Source of the DNA: a virus
Taxonomy: Duplodnaviria; Heunggongvirae; Uroviricota; Caudoviricetes
Length of the DNA stretch: 21,568 bases
IMG/VR virus record: IMGVR_UViG_3300045988_101336
Coordinates: 1 to 21,568 of that record
Strand: one strand, 5' to 3'
Every line of letters begins with the position of its first letter. Position 1 is the first letter of the stretch. A program made the translations under genes and the position numbers. Below the pieces are notes generated by a model, which saw nothing but the letters and a program-made list of their open reading frames with translations, was not told where the DNA came from and ran no database searches. Below are positions 1 to 21,568 of this stretch, one piece after another.

Positions 1-16
1 GACGCTCTTCCGATCT
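1..16. other. Sequencing adapter remnant (Illumina TruSeq-type, GACGCTCTTCCGATCT)
   Basis: Bases 1-16 read GACGCTCTTCCGATCT, the 3' end of the common Illumina adapter; its reverse complement AGATCGGAAGAGC... sits at the other end of the window. Not biological sequence. Confidence 0.85.
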
Positions 17-921
17 TTTTTTAAATTATCTATGGTAGCGGATTCATAAGACGATCTGATAATGCGTATTTGGTCAACTTTCTTGGAGTAGCTATCATCA
101 AAGATAGATTCAATTGCTTCTAAAAATTTGTCTTTAATAGTGTCTTCTTGGCAGAATGGGCAACATGTGCCATTTAAATATAATTCCTTCCCTTTTTTCA
201 CCCAATCAAGGTTTTGAAGTTTTTTAATTGTTTCTGACAAATAGCTATTACTTGAGTCTATAATCGGAGTGGATAAAGATTCTTTATCTTTTTCTGAAAT
301 GATATATTTTTCTAAAGGTGTAATTGATGCAGTGAATTTATCTTTGTTCTTTAAAAGAATACTATATTCTTGAGCAAGTGACTCGATGTTAACGTCAGTG
401 GTTTGAGGGGCTTTTTTAACTTGCTCATAAAATGATCTCTTGCTTCCTAACTGACCTTTCATCAAGTTCTTTAAGTCAGATGTTCTAAAAGGTTCTGCTT
501 TATTCCATATTAAATCAATATATTCATTTTCTTTATTGTTTTTATCGTTAATTAAACGCTCAATAACGTTTTTTTTATCTTTGTATTTTGTAAGTAGGTC
601 TTGTCTTATAGCTTCTTTTTCCAACAATTCTTTTTCAATGTCAGCATTTTCCTTACTTAAAGTGAATACTCCTTTTTGCTCTTTTGCATTATAAAAATTA
701 TCCTCAACAAACTTAGTATTATAAACCAATAGGCGAAAAGTATCTATGAAAGGACATTCGCATTCTTTGTAGTCCGTGTTATTTGGATTATAGAAATAAT
801 TAGATATGGTTGATTTTCCACAACCGTTGTGACCATAAAGTATATTAATTTTTTTTGAGAGATTAAGAGTTGTGAAGCTATCTTTCTTATAGCTGGTTAT
901 ATTCTTTAATTTAAGTTCCAT
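17..921 (-). CDS. SMC/Rad50-like P-loop ATPase with coiled coil and CxxC hook motif, N-terminal ~300 aa only (3' end runs off the window); candidate defence cargo at the cos-proximal variable locus
   Basis: Own translation of the minus strand from ATG at 921-919 (SD-like GAGG about 7 nt upstream): MELKLKNITSYKKDSFTTLNLSKKINILYGHNGCGKSTIS... Walker A GHNGCGKST at residues 31-39, then a long K/E-rich predicted coiled-coil stretch, then CCPFCQ (CxxC, Rad50/RloC-like zinc hook) near residue 257. No stop before the window edge, which is why the ORF track omits it. Strongly AT-rich with AT-rich codons, unlike the phage backbone. Confidence 0.6.
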
Positions 922-1251
922 TTTAAAACCTCATCACTGCCAATGATATGGTATAAATATTTAAGCTGTTTAACATGAATTATTTTGCTAAACGATAAAG
1001 ATCTACCTCAGAAGTTTACTTTGTTCAAGCAAAATCTTTTGTTCTAAGAGATATAAAAATTTTTATTAATAGTTTGATTTTTGTTCATGGGATTTCCTTT
1101 TTTTATGTTTTTACAAAGTAATAACTATGAATGTATCAGGTGCATGGTTTTGCATGTGTCAAAGTTATGCGTCCTCATTGCTTTACGTCACAGCTAGCGA
1201 GGATTCAACGTACTCATGCAACTGCATTAAAAGCGCCCCATGAAGCGGGCG

Positions 1252-10732: not shown

Positions 10733-12259
10733 ATGCGCGAACCAGTGTATTTAGAAGATGTCTTTAAACTTTCGGGTATCCCGACAATTACTTTTGTTGA
10801 ACCTAACGAGTATAAACACCTCTATGTGTCGATAAGAACAGCGGGAAGAGGGGTAATTATTGAAGGGCCATCAGGTATAGGGAAGACGACTTGCGTAAGA
10901 CAGGTTATTGAAAAGTTAAAATTCGAGACCAGTAGTCGGATAATTAAAGAGTTTAAAGTATTGTCTGGAAGGAAAAAGGAAGATAAAGCCCAGATTGAAA
11001 ATATAATAACAACGAGTGGTTTCGGTGGGGTGATTATTGATGATTTTCATAAGTTAGATGATGAGTTGAAGCATAAAATATCTGACTTGCTGAAAAATTT
11101 AGCGGATGAACAACCCTTAGATTCTAAGTTGATTATTATAGGTATAAATAAAACAGGCAAATCACTGATTGATTTATCACCGGATTTACTAAATCGAATC
11201 TCCATTGTTAAATTTGAGTCCAATCCGGAATATAAGGTCAGGGAGTTGCTAGAAAAAGGTGAGAATGCGCTTAATTTCAAATTAAATGTAAAAGAAGATA
11301 TTGTAAAGGACTCGGATGGGGCATTTCATCTGGCGCAAATGTTGGCTTATAATGCTTGTTTACAGGCTGATATCACAGAAGAGTTAGAATCTCCTCGGGA
11401 AACAAATATTAGCTATGAATCACTTAAAGAAACAGTGATTCAGGATCTTAGCTATAGATTCAATGATATAGTCGTTCGCTTTGTGAAAGGCCAGCGGGTT
11501 AAAAAGGGTAGTAGAGCTCCATATCTCCACGTTTTATATTGGTTATCTAAAGAAGATGAGCGTTCTTTAAATTTGACAAGTTATTTAATTAACAATCCTA
11601 ATCATCGTAATAGCGTTGGGCAAATTCTGACGCGAGGCCATTTAAAAACGCATTATGAGAGCAATCCTGATTTTTCGGATGTTATTCATTATAATGATGA
11701 AACTACGGAGATTTCAATCGAAGATCCCAAGTTTTATTATTATATAAAGAATTTGTTATGGAGCAAGCTTGCGGAGAAGATAGGTTTCACATCATTTGAG
11801 TTTAAGTCGAAATATGACTTTGCTTTATCATTTGCTGGAGCTAATAGAAATCATGCGGAATATTTAAATCAAAAGCTGATTGAGAATGAGTTATCTGTTT
11901 TTTATGATTTCAATGAGCAGGCCAGAATACTTTCTGAAGATGTAGAACAATATCTTGCTCCAATTTATAGGAGTGAGTCTGTTTTTGTAATTCCGTTTTT
12001 GAGTAGGGATTATCCAACTAGAATATGGTGCAAATTTGAAGGTGATACATTTAGGGATAGATTTGGTGATGGGTGTGTTATTCCTTTAAGATATAGTGAT
12101 GCACCTGTTGGCATGTTTGATACTGCCAATGGCATTGGAGGTTTTACCATAAATCCTAGTGAGGATATATACGCACAGCTAGATACATTTGCAAACTTGC
12201 TTGTTGAAAAAATATGTGAAAAAAGAATGCTCTTAAATGGAAAAGAGAATGAAGAATAA
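10733..12259 (+). CDS. P-loop NTPase (Walker A/B) fused to a C-terminal TIR-like domain; candidate single-gene anti-phage defence (abortive infection) protein in the S-V variable locus
   Basis: 508-aa ORF, strongly AT-rich, between backbone genes S and V. Walker A GPSGIGKTT (K51, codon 10883-10885); Walker B-like GGVIIDDFH (D103/D104). C-terminal ~150 aa (from about residue 358, roughly nt 11804 onward) reads YDFALSFAGANRNHAEYLNQKLIENELSVFYDF...SVFVIPFLSRDYPTRIWCKFEGDTF, which matches the pattern of bacterial TIR domains, with a candidate catalytic Glu at E436. Domain calls are by eye, without HMM confirmation. Confidence 0.7.
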   Translation: MREPVYLEDVFKLSGIPTITFVEPNEYKHLYVSIRTAGRGVIIEGPSGIGKTTCVRQVIEKLKFETSSRIIKEFKVLSGRKKEDKAQIENIITTSGFGGVIIDDFHKLDDELKHKISDLLKNLADEQPLDSKLIIIGINKTGKSLIDLSPDLLNRISIVKFESNPEYKVRELLEKGENALNFKLNVKEDIVKDSDGAFHLAQMLAYNACLQADITEELESPRETNISYESLKETVIQDLSYRFNDIVVRFVKGQRVKKGSRAPYLHVLYWLSKEDERSLNLTSYLINNPNHRNSVGQILTRGHLKTHYESNPDFSDVIHYNDETTEISIEDPKFYYYIKNLLWSKLAEKIGFTSFEFKSKYDFALSFAGANRNHAEYLNQKLIENELSVFYDFNEQARILSEDVEQYLAPIYRSESVFVIPFLSRDYPTRIWCKFEGDTFRDRFGDGCVIPLRYSDAPVGMFDTANGIGGFTINPSEDIYAQLDTFANLLVEKICEKRMLLNGKENEE

Positions 12260-13325: not shown

Positions 13326-14234
13326 ATGCCGATTATCGACCTGAACCAGCTACCCGCACCGGATGTGGTCGAGGAGCTGGACTTTGAAACCATTCTCGCC
13401 GAACGCAAGGCGACACTGATTTCCCTTTACCCGGAAGACCAGCAGGAGGCGGTCGCCCGTACCCTGACGCTGGAATCTGAGCCTCTCGTCAAACTGCTGG
13501 AGGAAAATGCTTATCGTGAGCTTATCTGGCGTCAGCGTGTGAATGAGGCCGCACGGGCGGTGATGCTGGCCTGTGCTGCCGGTAATGACCTTGATGTGAT
13601 TGGTGCCAATTACAACACCACGCGCCTGATTATCACCCCGGCAGATGATTCGACCCTCCCGCCGACACCGGCAGTGATGGAATCTGACACCGATTATCGT
13701 CTGCGTATTCAGCAGGCGTTTGAAGGTTTAAGCGTCGCCGGGTCGGTGGGTGCCTATCAGTATCATGGCCGCAGTGCCGACGGGCGTGTCGCGGATATCT
13801 CTGTCACCAGTCCGTCTCCGGCCTGCGTCACTATCTCTGTGCTGTCACGTGAAAATAACGGCGTCGCATCCGAAGACCTGCTGGCCGTGGTGCGTAACGC
13901 CCTTAATGGCGAGGACGTCAGGCCGGTGGCCGACCGCGTGACCGTGCAGTCTGCCGCCATCGTTGAATACCAGATAAACGCCACGCTGTATCTTTACCCT
14001 GGTCCCGAAAGCGAACCCATCCGCGCTGCCGCCGTGAAAAAACTGGAAGCGTATATCACGGCACAGCACCGGCTGGGGCGCGACATCCGTCTGTCTGCCA
14101 TTTATGCCGCTTTGCATGTGGAAGGCGTGCAGCGTGTCGAACTGGCTGCACCGCTGGCCGACATCGTGCTCAACAATACGCAGGCGTCTTTCTGTACCGA
14201 ATACAGCGTCGTGACCGGAGGCTCGGATGAGTGA
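13326..14234 (+). CDS. J: Baseplate assembly protein (P2 gpJ-like)
   Basis: 302-aa ORF MPIIDLNQLPAPDVVEELDFETILAERKATLISLYPEDQQ... Confidence 0.9.
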   Translation: MPIIDLNQLPAPDVVEELDFETILAERKATLISLYPEDQQEAVARTLTLESEPLVKLLEENAYRELIWRQRVNEAARAVMLACAAGNDLDVIGANYNTTRLIITPADDSTLPPTPAVMESDTDYRLRIQQAFEGLSVAGSVGAYQYHGRSADGRVADISVTSPSPACVTISVLSRENNGVASEDLLAVVRNALNGEDVRPVADRVTVQSAAIVEYQINATLYLYPGPESEPIRAAAVKKLEAYITAQHRLGRDIRLSAIYAALHVEGVQRVELAAPLADIVLNNTQASFCTEYSVVTGGSDE

Positions 14235-14838
14235 TTCGCGACTGCTGCCGACCGGCTCATCACTGCTTGAAGTTGCCGCCGCAAAAGCCTGTGCGGAAAT
14301 TGAAAAAACGCCGGTCAGTATTCGTGAGCTGTGGAACCCGGATACCTGTCCGGCAAATCTGCTGCCGTGGCTGGCGTGGTCATTTTCGGTTGACCGCTGG
14401 GATGATAAGTGGCCGGAAGCGACAAAACGCGCTGTTATCCGCGATGCGTATTTCATTCACTGCCATAAGGGCACTATTGGTGCGATTCGCCGTGTGGTGG
14501 AGCCGCTCGGCTATCTGATTGAGGTGAGGGAGTGGTGGCAGCTCAACGAGGAGCCGGGGACGTTCCGCATCGTTGTTGGCGTGCTTGAGCAGGGTATTAC
14601 CGAGGAAATGTATCAGGAGCTGGAGCGCCTCGTTGCTGATGCAAAACCGGCGAGCCGCCATCTGACGGGACTGGCTATCAGTTTAAGTACAACCGGCAAC
14701 ATTTTTGCCGGTGCGGGATGCTATCACGGTGACGCCCTGACGGTTTATCCCTACACCCCGGAGGCCATTATTGTCGGAGGGGATTATTTCCCGGCCTCGG
14801 CCATTCATTTAATTGATAACCTGAGAGTAAACGCATGA
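14227..14838 (+). CDS. I: Baseplate protein (P2 gpI-like)
   Basis: 203-aa [56 protein letters not shown]...; overlaps the J stop. Confidence 0.88.
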
Positions 14839-16013
14839 CAGTGAAATACTACGCCATTCTGACTAATCAGGGCGCAGCACGGCTGGCTAACGCGACGATG
14901 CTCGGCAGTAAGCTGAATCTGACGCAAATGGCCGTTGGTGATGCGAATGGTGTCTTGCCGACACCAGACCCGGCACAGACAAAACTGATTAATCAGAAAC
15001 GCATTGCACCGCTGAATCTTCTGAGTGTTGACCCGAACAACCAGAGCCAGATTATTGCGGAGCAAATCATCCCTGAGAACGAGGGCGGATTCTGGATCCG
15101 TGAGATTGGGCTTTATGATGATGAAGGCGTACTCATTGCGGTGGCAAACTGCCCGGAAACGTACAAACCGCAGTTGCAGGAAGGAAGCGGTCGTACCCAG
15201 ACTATCCGCATGATTCTGGTTGTCTCGAATACCGAAGCCATCACGCTGAAAATCGACCCGTCGGTGGTACTGGCGACCCGTAAATACGTGGATGATGAAG
15301 TCCTGGAATTAAGGCTGTATGTGGATGACCAGATGAGAAACCACATTGCCGCACAGGATCCTCATACCCAGTATGCACAGAAACATAATCCGACATTTAC
15401 CGGAGAACCAAAAGCGCCGACGCCTGCCGCAGGAAATAACACCACGCGGATTGCGACCACTGCGTTTGTTCAGGCCGCTATTACCGCTCTGATTAACGGT
15501 GCGCCAGCCACGCTGGACACACTGAAAGAAATTGCCGCAGCCATTAACAATGACCCGAAATTCAGCACCACCATTAACAATGCGCTGTCAGGTAAGCAGC
15601 CACTGGATGAGACGCTGACTCATTTGAGCGGAAAGGATGTTGCCGGCCTTCTCGCATACCTTGGTTTGGGAGAAGCGGCAAAACGGGATGTGGGGACAGG
15701 GACGAATCAGATACCTGATATGGGTAGCTTCACGCTTTCTGTTTCAGGTACTGGATATCAAAAATTACCATCTGGTTTTATTCTTCAGTGGGGCTCAATC
15801 GGCGCACCAGGTATTGCACAGGATGTGGTAACCCATTTTCCGATTGCATTTCCAAACCGATGTCTGCGTGTTTTGGTCTCACAAGACTACACACCAGATA
15901 GCGGGGCTGTTGGTTATATTGCCTGCGCAGGTTTTAGTTCCGACCCGGTTAAATTTATATCCAGAGCCAGTACTCCTGGCCTCGGCGCTTCATTTTTAGC
16001 GTTAGGCTGTTAA
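14835..16013 (+). CDS. H: Tail fibre protein (P2 gpH-like constant N-terminus, residues 1-~276, fused to a variable receptor-binding tip, currently expressed orientation)
   Basis: 392-aa [53 protein letters not shown]..., a conserved P2 H-like N-terminus. The C-terminal ~116 aa lie inside the invertible segment, downstream of the recombination site at 15649-15674. Confidence 0.85.
15649..15674. repeat. Left invertase recombination site (hix/gix-like, 26 bp) inside the tail fibre gene
   Basis: TTCTCGCATACC TT GGTTTGGGAGAA: two 12-bp half-sites around a central TT, following the Hin/Gin site pattern (TTxTCxxxAACC / GGTTTxxxxGAA). It is an inverted repeat of the site at 17517-17542. Confidence 0.7.
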
Positions 16014-16034
16014 TTTAGCCATATGGAGTGAAAA

Positions 16035-16475
16035 ATGAATTACATATATTCCGCGACTACAAACTCTTTCTATCCGCTGGAGATGAAAGAGGATTACACT
16101 CAAGCTGACTCATGGCCAGATGATGCTGTTGAAGTTGATGAGCAAGCGTATATTGAGTTTTCCGGATTACCGCCGAAAGGAAAAATCCGTATCGCTGGAG
16201 AAAATGGTTTTCCTGCATGGTCTGAAATTCCACCACCAACACATGAGGAACAGATTGCTGCAGCCGAACTGGAAAAGCAGCAACTGATTAATCAGGCCAA
16301 CGATTATATGAACAGTAAACAATGGCCTGGTAAAGCGGCTATTGGTCGTCTGAAAGGTGAGGAACTGGCGCAATATAATTTGTGGCTGGATTATCTGGAC
16401 GCACTGGAGCTGGTCGATACTTCCGGTGCGCCAGATATTGAATGGCCTACGCCTCCGGCAGTTCAGGCCAGATGA
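16035..16475 (+). CDS. G: Tail fibre assembly chaperone (Tfa / P2 gpG-like) for the currently expressed fibre tip
   Basis: 146-aa ORF directly downstream of H, with the typical Tfa C-terminus (...LWLDYLDALELVDTSGAPDIEWPTPPAVQ). Confidence 0.8.
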   Translation: MNYIYSATTNSFYPLEMKEDYTQADSWPDDAVEVDEQAYIEFSGLPPKGKIRIAGENGFPAWSEIPPPTHEEQIAAAELEKQQLINQANDYMNSKQWPGKAAIGRLKGEELAQYNLWLDYLDALELVDTSGAPDIEWPTPPAVQAR

Positions 16476-17049
16476 CATCCGGCGCGGTGCTGGTATCTGT
16501 TGCCGTCACCGCGTCAATGTAATCCAGCACAGCGTTAAGGCGGGTTGTTTCTGCCTGCGTCAGTTTACGTCCGGCCTGCAATTTCAGCTGAATCAGACTG
16601 ATGGAGGCCATTGCAGTATCAATCAGTGACTGACGCTGTGCTTCTGCCGCGTCTACTGCGGCGCTATGCTGTGCCTCAGTATCGGTCACCCATTTCTCAC
16701 CATCCCATTTATCGTATGGCGTTAATGGGGCGATAGTGGTTGTATTTTCGGGGTAATCACCCGGTGCTGTGATTTCTTTGGCATCTCCCGTTTCGGTGTT
16801 ATAGACGATTTCACCGCGATGGTCTGGCACATATTCCCATGAGTTTAAATCCATCGAACGGCAGATAGCATAACCAGCCTTATGTGTACCAGGAGCATCT
16901 AAACAGGAATATGCAGGAATACCGACACCAATGGCAAGATATTCATTTGAAGTGGAAATATATTCCCGAGTTTCACCATCATAGTTATAGACGGTAATAT
17001 TCCCCGCCTTCGTGGCAATAAGCTCGCTATTTAATACGGCGTTATCCAT
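16447..17049 (-). CDS. Alternative tail fibre assembly chaperone (Tfa') belonging to the silent fibre cassette
   Basis: 200-aa minus-strand ORF with a Tfa-like C-terminus (...RLNAVLDYIDAVTATDTSTAPDVIWPELPEA). Convergent with tfa, overlapping it tail-to-tail by 29 bp (16447-16475). Confidence 0.75.
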   Translation of the reverse strand: MDNAVLNSELIATKAGNITVYNYDGETREYISTSNEYLAIGVGIPAYSCLDAPGTHKAGYAICRSMDLNSWEYVPDHRGEIVYNTETGDAKEITAPGDYPENTTTIAPLTPYDKWDGEKWVTDTEAQHSAAVDAAEAQRQSLIDTAMASISLIQLKLQAGRKLTQAETTRLNAVLDYIDAVTATDTSTAPDVIWPELPEA

Positions 17050-17570
17050 TATGCAGCCCTCACGATAAAGTTAAATGCAATATTTCGTGGACGGGTTTCA
17101 CTCCCGCCAGTATTACCGATACTCCCTCGTGAATGAAGTGTCGGTGACGGGATTAGGCTCCCTCCTGTATTTGTGGCATCAAGTCCTCGCCCTTGTGTGT
17201 ATGTTTTTTTGAAAATCGTAGCCAGTTCCCATTCATCTTTCGTGTCGTAACCATCATTGGCAACAACAATATGACGGTGTTTTTCCAGCATTCCTGCCTG
17301 AATACTCAATAAAACACGTCCTGCATCAATACCGCGCCCGTCATCCCAGCCACGAATAAACTCACCGCGTAAATCAGGTAATTTATTTGTCGGATAAGCC
17401 TTTGCCAGTTCCGGGTATTCTTCAGCAGAAAAAGCCGCACCGTTGCATTTCAGCCAGCCTGTTGGCGGTGTGGCTGAAGGCCACGGAACAGGCACACCAA
17501 CAGGTAATGCAGAGCCTTCTCCTAAACCAACGTTTATGAAAATGCAGAGATAACGGGCAACTGGCATCAT
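17049..17570 (-). CDS. Alternative tail fibre C-terminal (receptor-binding) cassette Sv', promoterless in this orientation; functional part about 17052-17528
   Basis: Minus-strand ORF whose first 20 codons (...INVGLGEGS) include the recombination site and parallel H residues ...[10 protein letters not shown]. Contains a tail-collar-like motif LPDLRGEFIRGWDDGRGIDAGR. The ATG at 17570 is probably incidental; expression would follow inversion and fusion to H. Confidence 0.7.
   Translation of the reverse strand: MMPVARYLCIFINVGLGEGSALPVGVPVPWPSATPPTGWLKCNGAAFSAEEYPELAKAYPTNKLPDLRGEFIRGWDDGRGIDAGRVLLSIQAGMLEKHRHIVVANDGYDTKDEWELATIFKKTYTQGRGLDATNTGGSLIPSPTLHSRGSIGNTGGSETRPRNIAFNFIVRAA
17517..17542. 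repeat. Right invertase recombination site (inverted copy)
   Basis: Plus strand TTCTCCTAAACC AA CGTTTATGAAAA; its reverse complement TTTTCATAAACG TT GGTTTAGGAGAA matches the left site in 11 of 12 positions of the right half-site and 8 of 12 of the left, with an identical central dinucleotide. Confidence 0.65.
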
Positions 17571-17591
17571 CTCCGGTTTTTATTCAGGGGG

Positions 17592-18191
17592 ATGCTCATG
17601 CTTATTGGCTATGTACGCGTGTCAACAAATGACCAGAACACGGAATTGCAGCGTAACGCGCTGGAGTGCGCAGGATGCGAGCGGATTTTTGAGGATAAAA
17701 TCAGCGGCACGAAGTCCGACCGACCGGGACTGAAAAAACTGCTCAGAACATTATCAGCAGGTGACACTCTGGTAGTCTGGAAGCTGGACAGGCTGGGGCG
17801 TAGTATGCGGCATCTGGTCATTCTGGTTGAGGAACTGCGCGAACGCGGCGTTAATTTTCGCAGTCTGACGGATGCTATTGATACCAGCACGCCGATGGGG
17901 CGTTTTTTCTTTCATGTGATGGGTGCCCTGGCTGAAATGGAGCGAGAACTCATTGTCGAGCGGACACGCGCCGGACTGGAAGCGGCCAGAGCCAAAGGTC
18001 GTATTGGTGGCAGACGTCCGAAACTCACCGCGAGTGAGTGGGAGCAGGTCGGACGGTTGCTGGCTGCGGGGGAATCTCGTCAACGTGTGGCGCTGATTTT
18101 TGATATTGGCCTGTCCACGCTCTATAAAAAATTCCCCTCATCAGCGGCAAAGAATAAATTGTGTCATCCCTTAGCCAACCGGGACAAATAG
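17592..18191 (+). CDS. Serine-recombinase DNA invertase (Hin/Gin/Cin/Pin family)
   Basis: 199-aa ORF M(LM)LIGYVRVSTNDQNTELQRNALECAGCERIFEDKISGTKSDRPGLKKLL...GDTLVVWKLDRLGRSMRHL...FRSLTDAIDTSTPMGRFFFHVMGALAEMERELIVERT...GGRRPKLT...LSTLYKK. Near-identical in pattern to Gin/Hin, including the catalytic serine motif (YVRVSTxDQ) and C-terminal HTH. The true start may be the ATG at 17598. Confidence 0.92.
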   Translation: MLMLIGYVRVSTNDQNTELQRNALECAGCERIFEDKISGTKSDRPGLKKLLRTLSAGDTLVVWKLDRLGRSMRHLVILVEELRERGVNFRSLTDAIDTSTPMGRFFFHVMGALAEMERELIVERTRAGLEAARAKGRIGGRRPKLTASEWEQVGRLLAAGESRQRVALIFDIGLSTLYKKFPSSAAKNKLCHPLANRDK

Positions 18192-18250
18192 CCTGACATC
18201 TCCGGCACAACTGAAAATAACACTCACCCATTAACCACGGAGTTAAACGG

Positions 18251-19441
18251 ATGAGTGACTATCATCACGGCGTGCAGGTGCTGGAGATTAACGACGGCAC
18301 CCGCGTCATTTCCACCGTATCCACCGCCATTGTTGGCATGGTCTGCACGGCCAGCGATGCGGATGCGGAAACCTTCCCCGTCAATAAACCGGTGCTGATC
18401 ACCAATGTGCAGAGCGCGATTGCAAAGGCCGGTAAAAAAGGCACGCTGGCGGCATCGTTGCAGGCCATCGCTGACCAGTCAAAACCGGTCACCGTTGTCG
18501 TGCGCGTGGAAGACGGAACCGGCGACGACGAAGAAACGAAACTCGCGCAGACCGTTTCCAATATCATCGGCACCACTGACGAAAACGGTCAGTACACCGG
18601 ACTGAAAGCCTTGCTGGCGGCGGAGTCGGTAACCGGTGTTAAACCGCGTATTCTCGGTGTGCCGGGACTGGATACCAAAGAGGTGGCTGTTGCACTGGCA
18701 TCCGTCTGTCAGAAGCTGCGCGCTTTCGGGTATATCAGCGCATGGGGCTGTAAAACCATTTCCGAGGTGAAAGCCTACCGCCAGAATTTCAGCCAGCGTG
18801 AGCTGATGGTCATCTGGCCGGATTTCCTCGCATGGGATACGGTCATCAGTACCACCGCCACCGCGTATGCCACCGCCCGTGCGCTGGGTCTGCGCGCTAA
18901 AATCGACCAGGAGCAGGGCTGGCATAAAACGCTGTCCAACGTCGGGGTAAACGGTGTTACCGGCATCAGCGCCTCTGTATTCTGGGATTTGCAGGAGTCC
19001 GGCACCGATGCTGACCTGCTTAACGAGTCAGGCGTCACTACGCTGATTCGCCGCGACGGTTTCCGATTCTGGGGTAACCGTACCTGCTCTGATGACCCGC
19101 TGTTCCTCTTTGAAAACTACACCCGCACCGCGCAGGTGCTGGCCGACACGATGGCTGAGGCGCACATGTGGGCGGTGGACAAGCCCATCACCGCAACGCT
19201 GATTCGCGACATCGTTGACGGCATCAATGCCAAATTCCGTGAGCTGAAAACAAACGGCTATATCGTGGATGCGACCTGCTGGTTCAGCGAAGAATCCAAC
19301 GATGCGGAAACCCTCAAGGCCGGAAAACTGTATATCGACTACGACTATACCCCGGTGCCTCCTCTTGAAAACCTGACCCTGCGCCAGCGTATTACCGATA
19401 AATACCTGGCAAATCTGGTCACCTCGGTTAACAGCAATTAA
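18251..19441 (+). CDS. FI: Tail sheath protein (P2 gpFI-like)
   Basis: 396-aa ORF MSDYHHGVQVLEINDGTRVISTVSTAIVGMV...; length and sequence match P2 FI. Confidence 0.93.
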   Translation: MSDYHHGVQVLEINDGTRVISTVSTAIVGMVCTASDADAETFPVNKPVLITNVQSAIAKAGKKGTLAASLQAIADQSKPVTVVVRVEDGTGDDEETKLAQTVSNIIGTTDENGQYTGLKALLAAESVTGVKPRILGVPGLDTKEVAVALASVCQKLRAFGYISAWGCKTISEVKAYRQNFSQRELMVIWPDFLAWDTVISTTATAYATARALGLRAKIDQEQGWHKTLSNVGVNGVTGISASVFWDLQESGTDADLLNESGVTTLIRRDGFRFWGNRTCSDDPLFLFENYTRTAQVLADTMAEAHMWAVDKPITATLIRDIVDGINAKFRELKTNGYIVDATCWFSEESNDAETLKAGKLYIDYDYTPVPPLENLTLRQRITDKYLANLVTSVNSN

Positions 19442-21551: not shown

Positions 21552-21568
21552 AGATCGGAAGAGCACAC
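21552..21568. other. Sequencing adapter remnant (Illumina TruSeq-type read-through, AGATCGGAAGAGCACAC)
   Basis: Exact match to the start of the standard Illumina adapter read-through sequence; reverse-complementary in type to the remnant at 1-16. Confidence 0.85.

Follow-up and report, generated by a model that had tools for sequence, protein, structure and literature searches.

Invertible tail-fibre cassettes have been textbook examples of genetic switches since the G segment of phage Mu, the C segment of P1 and the P segment of e14. Mu (G/Gin) and P1 (C/Cin) follow the same logic, in which a fibre gene is split by a 26-bp site into a constant and a variable part (Sc/Sv), the alternative parts are accompanied by the chaperones U and U', and an adjacent serine invertase carries an internal enhancer, features that recur at the locus described here, the enhancer as a homologous stretch. 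The P segment of e14, with its invertase PinE (Plasterk and van de Putte 1985, as cited in PMC4272514), runs in the order fibre constant part, site, tip, tfa, convergent tfa', tip', site and invertase, and our locus has the same gene order. Read mapping, together with PCR for a three-site locus, revealed that e14 and two P2-like prophages of enteropathogenic E. coli (EPEC) keep inverting in culture (PMC4272514, Goldberg 2014). Furthermore, the e14 segment can be flipped by PinE as well as by PinQ, at the TTGGTTTGGGAGAAGG repeat that is also found at our locus (PMC12529663).

Here we analyse a viral stretch of 21,568 nucleotides (IMG/VR record IMGVR_UViG_3300045988_101336, hereafter the window), in which a cassette of this kind lies in the tail-fibre region. 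We estimate a probability of about 0.9 that this region of a P2-like E. coli prophage is a working two-state inversion switch of the Gin/Cin/Pin/Hin class, situated in the tail-fibre operon.

A cassette within a P2-type late gene set

The genes of the window follow the P2 order (Q P; O N M L X Y K lysABC R S; V W J I H G; FI FII E E' T), as read from the map of open reading frames (ORFs) and the Pfam labels of identical loci, with the contig cut at both ends. Late genes for portal, terminase, capsid, lysis, baseplate, sheath, tube and tape-measure proteins are present. Aligned with P2 itself (NC_001895), gene I, the N-terminus of H and the region from FI onward match, and DNA identity reaches 97% from position 18171, that is, from the pF promoter region into FI. 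In contrast, P2 encodes a 669-aa H with a single G chaperone, and it carries fun(Z), which sits between G and FI, where the window has a second tip set and an invertase. The cassette is a homologue of the e14 P segment at the place of P2 fun(Z). A first-pass annotation of the window had stated that P2 lacks such a switch, and the P2 record agrees: across its positions 12000-23000 we found no invertase and no partner crossover site. P2 H does hold one relic gix-like site, at the homologous ...YLGL... position.

Two inverted crossover sites share core and codon phase

The switch is delimited by two inverted 26-bp sites, each built of imperfect 12-bp half-sites around a 2-bp core. The left, pixL-like site (15649-15674, plus strand; TTCTCGCATACC-TT-GGTTTGGGAGAA) lies inside H at ...LAYLGLGE..., where exchange would take place at the central TT (15661-15662). 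The right, pixR-like site (17517-17542, minus strand) reads TTTTCATAAACG-TT-GGTTTAGGAGAA on that strand, with its central dinucleotide at 17529-17530. When the right site is taken as its reverse complement, 20 of the 26 positions are alike, and the pair forms the longest inverted repeat within 14800-18300.

To place these sites within the family, we scanned the whole 21.5 kb window with the Pin/Gin/Cin family consensus TTCTCNNAAACCNNGGTTTNNGAGAA, allowing at most three mismatches. The two sites were the sole matches, and none of 100 shuffled sequences contained any. The consensus was then compared with the Mu gix, P1 cix and e14 pix sites from public records. Both sites closely match e14 pix and follow the family pattern common to Mu gix and P1 cix. 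Relative to e14 pix, the invertase-proximal outer half-site is identical (the outer half of the right site equals that of the e14 site beside pinE), and the inner half is either identical, as in the left site, or differs by one base. The left site is also identical in phage pro483 and in strain GPEC1210. Relaxing the scan to five mismatches yielded no third crossover site in the window; with two sites only, the locus is therefore a two-state switch, and a shufflon such as that of one EPEC P2-like prophage or of p15B Min was rejected.

The reading frame is preserved across both sites. Each begins at the second base of a codon, and the central TT occupies codon positions 2-3 of L276 in H and of a valine codon in the minus-strand ORF (...INVGLGE...). 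Productive inversion needs matching central dinucleotides in sites oriented as inverted repeats, and in this orientation both cores read TT. Exchanging the segment in silico at the central TT gives an open 435-aa protein, H', composed of 276 constant and 159 new residues. The first-pass annotation had reported two inverted 26-bp sites with these coordinates and sequences, had located the left one within H and the right one in the same phase within a minus-strand ORF, and had predicted an in-frame fusion of roughly residues 1-276 of H to a tip of about 159 aa; the scan, the codon positions and the open H' bear it out on all of these points.

Two unrelated tips, each followed by a chaperone

Between the sites lie 1,868 bp (15662-17529) that hold two convergent sets of tip and chaperone. 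In its current form, H spans 14835-16013 on the plus strand (392 aa), preceded by a P2 I-like gene (14227-14838), and combines a Phage_tail_fib N-terminus with a Gp53-like_C C-terminus. Its constant part, codons 1-276 (14835-15662, plus strand), matches Pfam Phage_tail_fib over aa 1-150 (E 8.6e-63) and is 42% identical to P2 gpH over aa 26-258. The current C-terminus, tip A (15663-16013, plus strand; 116 aa and a stop), contains the Gp53-like_C domain (aa 310-392 of H, E 2.2e-14) and is 29% identical to the C-terminus of e14 StfP. The silent alternative, tip B (17049-17528, minus strand; 159 aa and a stop), belongs to the Pfam Collar family (E 1.2e-15) and matches the tip structure of T4 gp37 (2XGF, E 3.4e-17). 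The swap thus replaces the gp53-like tip of the 392-aa H by the collar-domain tip of the 435-aa H', and both products are open. Since the tips come from unrelated domain families (Gp53-like_C and Collar), it is plausible that they recognise different receptors and differ in host specificity. Receptor prediction from solved structures gave generic collar (T4 gp37/gp12) and fibre-shaft matches, with no receptor-binding homologue among them.

Inside the segment, a Caudo_TAP gene for a tail-fibre assembly chaperone lies directly downstream of each tip. Tip A is paired with tfaA (16035-16475, plus strand; 146 aa; Pfam Caudo_TAP, E 1e-37), whose product shares 60% identity with e14 TfaP across the C-terminal 100 aa. 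Tip B is paired with tfaB (16447-17049, minus strand; 200 aa; Caudo_TAP, E 1.4e-32), whose product is 91% identical to e14 TfaE and whose start overlaps the tip B stop (TAATG); tfaB is silent in the window orientation. The two genes converge with a 29-bp tail-to-tail overlap, and the same overlap exists between K-12 tfaP and tfaE. A separate chaperone for each tip, in this convergent and overlapping layout, had been proposed at first pass, and Pfam assigns both genes to the expected family. The 3' ends of the two tfa genes additionally form a second inverted homology (I6). Overall, the protein families that Pfam gives for all five genes of the locus fit the switch model.

Tip B is read as the end of a silent-side ORF with its own ATG (17049-17570, minus strand; 173 aa; Collar domain), which is 62% identical to K-12 stfE. 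This raises the alternative that the switch mainly serves the lysogen, in which the host would express this invertase-side ORF to block the adsorption of other phages, like the e14 chimera StfE2, which was reported to block T2 adsorption (PMC12529663). The layout of the ORF resembles that of stfE, with a comparable short leader (MMPVARYLCIFINV versus MPFACYFFIFINV), and a GGAG stands just upstream of its ATG; after a flip, it would become a 130-aa ORF consisting of the MMPVARYLCIFINV leader and the gp53-like tip. However, a consensus scan gave no promoter for the silent-side ORF, and promoter counts overall were no better than in shuffles. Moreover, the tips differ from those of K-12, and the P2-type late genes around the cassette appear to form a complete set, so that the classical role in virion host range is available and sufficient. 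A role in the lysogen would in any case come on top of the host-range function rather than supplant it, and we consider a switch devoted mainly to the lysogen unlikely. By analogy with e14, a weaker form of the idea is conceivable, though we would wager against it: besides the virion tips, inversion may toggle a stand-alone invertase-side product that, if expressed in the lysogen, could block the adsorption of competing phages. In that case, a single flip would serve an intact P2-like prophage twice, changing its host range and defending against superinfection.

An intact invertase with an enhancer-like stretch

Next to the right site, a Pin-type serine DNA invertase is encoded at 17598-18191 on the plus strand (197 aa; Pfam Resolvase, 8e-53, and HTH_7, 5.5e-13); an in-frame ATG upstream, at 17592, would extend it to 199 aa. 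The gene is intact. Its product has the composition of a small serine recombinase, with a catalytic domain that includes the active-site serine and a C-terminal helix-turn-helix, and the translation shows both catalytic motifs, YVRVS(9)T and D64-R65-x-x-R68. Residues 1-184 align with the crystal structure of Gin (3UJ3, E 2.3e-94). Identical residues number 158 with e14 PinE (86% of PinE's 184), 146 with Gin and 145 with Cin, or 73-74% identity to the latter two, and the protein annotated 'DNA invertase' in pro483 is 96% identical (189/197 residues). A C-terminal extension of 13 residues, which the 184-residue PinE of e14 does not have, runs into the P2 pF promoter region. Upstream of the gene, a consensus scan between the right site and the start codon (17543-17597) found no convincing sigma-70 promoter. 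The invertase gene is essential to the system, as the enhancer-like stretch inside it would be, and both lie beyond the interval that the first-pass annotation had delimited.

Several residues are reported to be conserved only in Fis-dependent invertases, namely the basic residues Hin 47/48/51 in helix B and Q151/R154/L155 in DNA-binding helix 1 (PMC3798978). The window invertase keeps K46, K47 and R50 in helix B as well as EQVGRLL (Q-x-x-R-L) in DNA-binding helix 1. The numbering was mapped from the Hin sequence, and the positions of both motifs agree with the Gin and Cin sequences.

The P1 record annotates an 'enhancer of Cin-mediated C-segment inversion' at cin nucleotides 19-90. The homologous stretch of the window (sis; 17616-17687, plus strand) covers invertase nucleotides 19-90, and over these 72 positions gapless identity to the P1 enhancer amounts to 56 positions in the window, 57 in e14 and 55 in Mu, a homology that is confounded because the stretch is a conserved coding region. 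Synonymous conservation within the stretch (5/19 versus 13/79 codons, p = 0.33) is not significant; it peaks at codons 1-12 and 25-36, which is the expected direction, again short of significance. Two candidate Fis cores of the form G-N13-C, at 17619-17633 (GTGTCAACAAATGAC) and 17668-17682 (GCGCAGGATGCGAGC) on the plus strand, occupy positions that are conserved in pin, gin and cin. They lie 49 bp apart, start to start, as against the known Fis-site spacing of 48 bp, and the exact registers of the cores are therefore uncertain. A pair at +120/+168, picked by the simple G-N13-C rule with 48-bp spacing, falls off the enhancer annotated in P1 and was dropped in favour of homology mapping. By its homology to the P1 enhancer, 17616-17687 may act as a recombinational enhancer. 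As in other systems of the Gin/Cin/Pin/Hin class, inversion would depend on host Fis and on negative supercoiling.

Both orientations occur in public genomes

Among complete E. coli genomes, 31 carry the arrangement of the window and 40 carry, in one collinear piece, the arrangement obtained by flipping it in silico. Between the sister isolates GPEC1210 and GPEC1209, an exact inversion bounded by the sites is the sole difference in 15,001 bp, and its breakpoints fall within the central TT plus the shared inner half-site (the equivalent of 15661-15676, 16 bp). Contig DBAGKK010000049 is 99.90% identical to its flipped form over 7,116 bp with no gaps, and another contig (L011) is 99.99% identical to the unflipped form. 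DBAGKK010000049 (our L022) also carries the same AAA-TIR cargo gene as the window. At the protein level, 7 contigs in NCBI E. coli records encode precisely the predicted H', and 11 encode precisely H. Both orientations are thus found for the element family and for the lineage; the window itself is a single short-read contig in one state.

That single state leads to another explanation, namely that the cassette, once acquired from an e14-like element, no longer flips, which would leave the minus-strand tip and chaperone as dead cargo. In line with such a frozen relic, the scan recognised no invertase promoter, and the right inner half-site bears a rare C-to-T substitution at 17523, seen otherwise only in contig ERZ27229836. 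The flipped relatives that we examined carry C at the equivalent position, and therefore none of them shows a flip of the exact site allele of the window. Nevertheless, T is the base found at this position in functional P1 cix and Mu gix half-sites, and all five ORFs and both sites are intact. A frame-disrupting change at one site, named at first pass as a mark of a frozen and decayed switch, is absent, and the lineage is found in either orientation, the breakpoints coinciding with the sites. A prophage 99.9% identical to the window is flipped, and the sister isolates differ only by the inversion. Pin-family invertases of other prophages can, moreover, flip such segments in trans (PMC12529663). 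A frozen relic is accordingly quite improbable.

Least credible of all is that the database arrangements stem from misassembly or from RecA-dependent exchange at inverted homologies. Short-read assemblers can place a segment flanked by inverted repeats the wrong way round, some contigs break at or beside the sites (L023 starts at the central TT and L019 ends just inside the inner half-site, breaks that mixed orientation in the reads would also produce), and the tfa 3' ends offer a second inverted homology, yet finished genomes show both states (31 versus 40), breakpoints fall within 16 bp, counted from the central TT of a canonical 26-bp site, the perfect repeat of only ~15 bp is too short for efficient RecA exchange, and inversion at these repeats was confirmed by PCR in e14 and in an EPEC P2-like prophage (PMC4272514, PMC12529663).

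Proposed mechanism and implications

For a working two-state switch, we propose the following course of events. The invertase (17598-18191) would bind both 26-bp sites as dimers, with host Fis on the putative enhancer within the invertase gene as its activator. After cutting both sites at the central TT, it would rotate the subunits by 180 degrees and religate, leaving the 1,868 bp between 15662 and 17529 inverted. Transcription from the P2 late operon (V-W-J-I-H-G) would presumably reach only the tip and chaperone that face the H constant part. Virions made in the present state would bear H ending in the 116-aa gp53-like tip, with TfaA as its folding chaperone; those made in the inverted state would bear the 435-aa H' ending in the 159-aa collar-domain tip, with TfaB in that role. 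As tip and chaperone alternate together by inversion, a lysogen population would release two kinds of particles with different receptor specificity.

Nothing in this switch is new, as the device was already known; the presence and activity of such cassettes in P2-like prophages are published, and the exact allele is public in both states. The locus does bear on practice. In annotation, the silent tip is routinely given a gene of its own, labelled 'phage tail protein' or 'gp53-like domain-containing protein', and it should be treated as an alternative 3' exon-like cassette of H. In assembly, contigs break at or beside the crossover sites. For phage engineering and typing, a single lysogen would be expected to give two receptor specificities.

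Comparison with known inversion systems

Some e14-type elements in strains other than K-12 (H29, H30) share 93.7% DNA identity over the whole cassette and are closer to it than K-12 e14. K-12 e14 was rejected as a whole-cassette DNA match, as only the tfa 3' end with tfaE, and stfE with pinE, align, at 87-90%. Beyond the cassette, the two differ in context. The StfP of e14 has a short N-terminus, whereas the constant part in the window is a P2-type gpH set in a P2-like late-operon backbone, and e14 is defective, whereas the late region of the window looks complete as far as the contig goes.

In phage pro483 (Peduovirus), the same layout is placed between I and FI, with the same left site and an annotated invertase, but the tips and chaperones diverge, DNA identity being 87% or undetectable across parts of the segment. 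One locus of the P2-like prophages of EPEC E2348/69 is described as a three-site, four-state shufflon, in contrast to the two sites of the window.

The constant part of P1 S shares 72-76% DNA identity with the region just upstream of the left site, and TfaA alone is weakly similar to Mu, namely to U'. The core is TC/GA in Mu and TT/AA in the window, and the segments of Mu (3 kb) and P1 (4.2 kb) are longer than the 1,868 bp found here, with tips that are unrelated and larger. In P1, unlike in the window, cin lies on the other side of the segment, with cixL at its 3' end. In its design, the locus conforms to the Mu G, P1 C and e14 P model to which the first-pass annotation had likened it, with in-frame sites, alternative tips and a chaperone for each tip all in place.

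Organization of the fibre cassette

The fibre gene H (14835-16013, plus strand; 392 aa) combines a P2-type Phage_tail_fib N-terminus with a Gp53-like_C tip (tip A), and is directly followed on the same strand by a Caudo_TAP chaperone gene, tfaA (16035-16475). Facing them on the minus strand are an ORF (17049-17570) encoding a second, silent tip with a phage Collar domain (tip B) and a second Caudo_TAP gene, tfaB (16447-17049). The first-pass annotation had proposed that each tip has its own chaperone, the two genes converging with a 29-bp overlap, and that inversion would exchange the tips in frame; both proposals were borne out. Each crossover site begins at codon base 2, with its central TT at codon positions 2-3. 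Since both sites share this phase, exchange at the central dinucleotide, performed in silico, fused the first 276 codons of H to a further 159 residues in an open 435-aa protein, hereafter H'.

The stop codon of tip B overlaps the start of tfaB (TAATG), which suggests that the two are translationally coupled. Gp53-like_C and Collar are unrelated domain families, and the tips that bear them may recognize different receptors. Structure-sequence searches for a receptor-binding homologue of either tip returned generic collar and fibre matches only, and we therefore assign no receptor to them. In the chicken isolates GPEC1210 and GPEC1209, RefSeq models the silent tip as a gene of its own (L001 7850-8368 and L002 7979-8371, respectively), named “phage tail protein” or “gp53-like domain-containing protein”, whose 5' end is simply the reverse reading of the interval that separates the right site from the invertase gene. 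Invertible cassettes probably give rise to such separate gene models as annotation artefacts.

Re-reading the sequence returned both 26-bp crossover sites with the positions and letters first quoted: the left at 15649-15674 on the plus strand (TTCTCGCATACC-TT-GGTTTGGGAGAA) and the right at 17517-17542 on the minus strand (reverse complement TTTTCATAAACG-TT-GGTTTAGGAGAA). This pair is the longest inverted repeat within 14800-18300. As a site consensus we used TTCTCNNAAACCNNGGTTTNNGAGAA, which was compared with Mu gix (TTATCCAAAACC TC GGTTTACAGGAA), P1 cix, and the K-12 e14 sites (CTCTCGAAAACC TT GGTTTGGGAGAA and TTCTCCCAAACC AA CGTTTATGAAAA) in public records. Allowing up to three mismatches, just these two sites matched in the whole 21.5-kb window, and none of 100 dinucleotide-preserving shuffles contained any match. 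A window scan at up to five mismatches found no third crossover site; the cassette is thus a two-state switch, and a shufflon is ruled out.

At 17523, within the inner half of the right site (TTCTCCTAAACC), a rare T replaces the usual C. Only the window and the ENA contig ERZ27229836 k119_100081 show this change; every other relative compared has C there, as do the flipped relatives examined at the equivalent position, and this is the single caveat to the evidence for flipping presented below. T also occupies this position in functional half-sites of P1 cix and Mu gix, so we do not expect the change to affect the site.

Invertase and proposed mechanism

The adjacent invertase gene (17592/17598-18191, plus strand) encodes Resolvase and HTH_7 domains. 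Residues 1-184 align to the Gin crystal structure (E 2.3e-94), and 158 residues are identical with those of PinE (184 aa), 146 with Gin, and 145 with Cin. The enzyme is intact, with its active-site serine present in YVRVS9T, and a reading of the region as a frozen relic is weak. The protein has kept the basic residues of helix B as well as a Q-x-x-R-L motif, features whose conservation McLean et al. report for Fis/enhancer-dependent invertases only (PMC3798978). Continuation of its frame into the site where the activator binds at the pF late promoter makes it 13 residues longer than PinE, the last 13 codons crossing the P2 pF region (window 18150-18191 versus P2 locus L007 2556-2584), an arrangement that could couple invertase expression to late activation.

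The 5' part of the gene may hold a recombinational enhancer. In the P1 record, nucleotides 19-90 of cin are marked as the Cin enhancer, and the homologous stretch of the window, 17616-17687, is identical at 56 of 72 positions (57 for e14 and 55 for Mu). Synonymous conservation here peaks at codons 1-12 and 25-36 with a dip between, a pattern that is not significant and lies in a conserved coding region; two candidate Fis cores fall within these same codons.

Classical Fis-activated Pin inversion is the best-supported explanation of the region. Fis, acting at the putative enhancer inside the invertase gene, would activate the Pin-type invertase, which would exchange both sites at the central TT and invert 15662-17529. 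The P2 late operon would then express whichever tip and chaperone face the constant part of H, and a lysogen population would thus release two kinds of virion. An alternative in which the switch chiefly benefits the host, as has been claimed for e14 StfE2 (PMC12529663), is weak.

Both orientations occur in E. coli

We inverted the segment in silico and screened the complete E. coli genomes for either arrangement with a 3-kb query, requiring a single place to cover at least 80% of it. The window arrangement was present in 31 genomes and the flipped arrangement in 40, with the top matches forming a single collinear piece at ~97% identity. GPEC1210 and GPEC1209 share the chromosomal location of the prophage. 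Over 15,001 bp the two differ only by an exact inversion, whose allowed breakpoints run from the central TT through the whole of the shared inner half-site (equivalent to window 15661-15676). At the protein level, the exact 392-aa H was found on 11 public contigs and the exact predicted 435-aa H' on seven, all of the latter from E. coli. An explanation by assembly or RecA artefact is weak.

Close relatives of the window itself exist in both states. Contig DBAGKK010000049, which has the AAA-TIR cargo gene in common with the window, matches the flipped window at 99.90% identity over 7,116 bp without gaps, and k119_100081 matches the unflipped window at 99.99%. Two draft contigs break at or beside the sites: PIMQ01000014.1 begins at the central TT, and DADSSE010000004.1 stops just within the inner half-site. 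Such breaks are expected where cultures or reads contain both orientations.

In E. coli MS 198-1, a related cassette lies in one orientation on the chromosome (NZ_CP146687.1) and in the opposite one on a 66.8-kb plasmid-labelled sequence (NZ_CP146689.1). This pair could represent a second copy, a phage-plasmid, or a by-product of assembling mixed orientations.

Contig ends and cargo genes

Window positions 1-16 (GACGCTCTTCCGATCT) and 21552-21568 (AGATCGGAAGAGCACAC) are what we take to be Illumina TruSeq adapter ends, and where the window turns to adapter, near-identical contigs go on through the tape-measure gene. It follows that the window spans one complete short-read contig that is chimeric with adapter at either end.

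Two known variable slots of P2 are occupied here by AT-rich cargo genes that are candidates for defence. The first (10733-12259, plus strand; 508 aa, 33-36% GC) lies between P2 S-like and V-like genes and encodes a protein with a P-loop/AAA region at its N-terminus, a TIR_2 domain at its C-terminus (27.6 bits, narrowly short of the 28-bit cut-off) and a PADLOC match to PDC-S59 (1.5e-19). It is probably anti-phage cargo, as related prophages hold a different gene in this slot or leave it empty. The second, an AAA_13 ATPase (Pfam PF13166, 9.4e-34; PADLOC PDC-S06, 8.6e-92), is cut by the left contig end, leaving the N-terminal 301 aa (about 17-925, minus strand; 30% GC). It adjoins the P2 Q-like portal gene, in the old/tin-type cargo slot of P2-like prophages.

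Relation to P2 and to known invertible systems

As the first-pass annotation had held, P2 itself lacks the switch: between G and FI it carries the non-essential fun(Z), without a second tip set or invertase, and the part of its record that we read (NC_001895, 12000-23000) contains neither a partner site nor an invertase. Homology to P2 restarts at window 18171, partway through the sequence annotated as the binding site of the pF activator, and the upstream TTGTG element is preserved at the same spacing. P2 H does contain a single gix-like site, TTATCGAATATC TC GGTTTACAGGAA, at ...IEYLGLQE... (L024 1858-1883), identical to Mu gix in its core and right half. Judged by its sequence, it looks like a fossil of an earlier cassette exchange.

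The proposed kinship with the Mu G, P1 C, and e14 P designs also stood, the cassette belonging to the Gin/Cin/Pin/Hin tail-fibre systems with e14 P/PinE nearest. Sequence comparison indicates a layout orthologous to the e14 P segment. Identity reaches 91% between TfaB and TfaE, 62% between the silent-side ORF with tip B and stfE, 60% between TfaA and TfaP over the C-terminal 100 residues, and 29% between the tip A region of H and the StfP C-terminus. K-12 tfaP and tfaE share the identical 29-bp tail-to-tail overlap. The whole cassette shows 93.7% DNA identity to e14-type elements of other strains (matches H29 and H30), and an identical TfaB also adjoins Mu/e14-type baseplate genes on two public contigs (L020 and L021). 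Phage pro483 (Peduovirus) has an equal layout, with a gene annotated as DNA invertase. Goldberg et al. found that such segments invert in culture, by read mapping and PCR for e14 and by read mapping for two EPEC P2-like prophages, with PCR confirmation for a three-site locus (PMC4272514). Surveys of programmed inversion list tail-fibre genes among the enriched families (PMC9881135), and according to Kirigo et al. (PMC12529663), 33% of 562 E. coli genome sequences show inversion of the e14 P segment. Given these precedents, an invertible tail-fibre cassette of this kind is already known.
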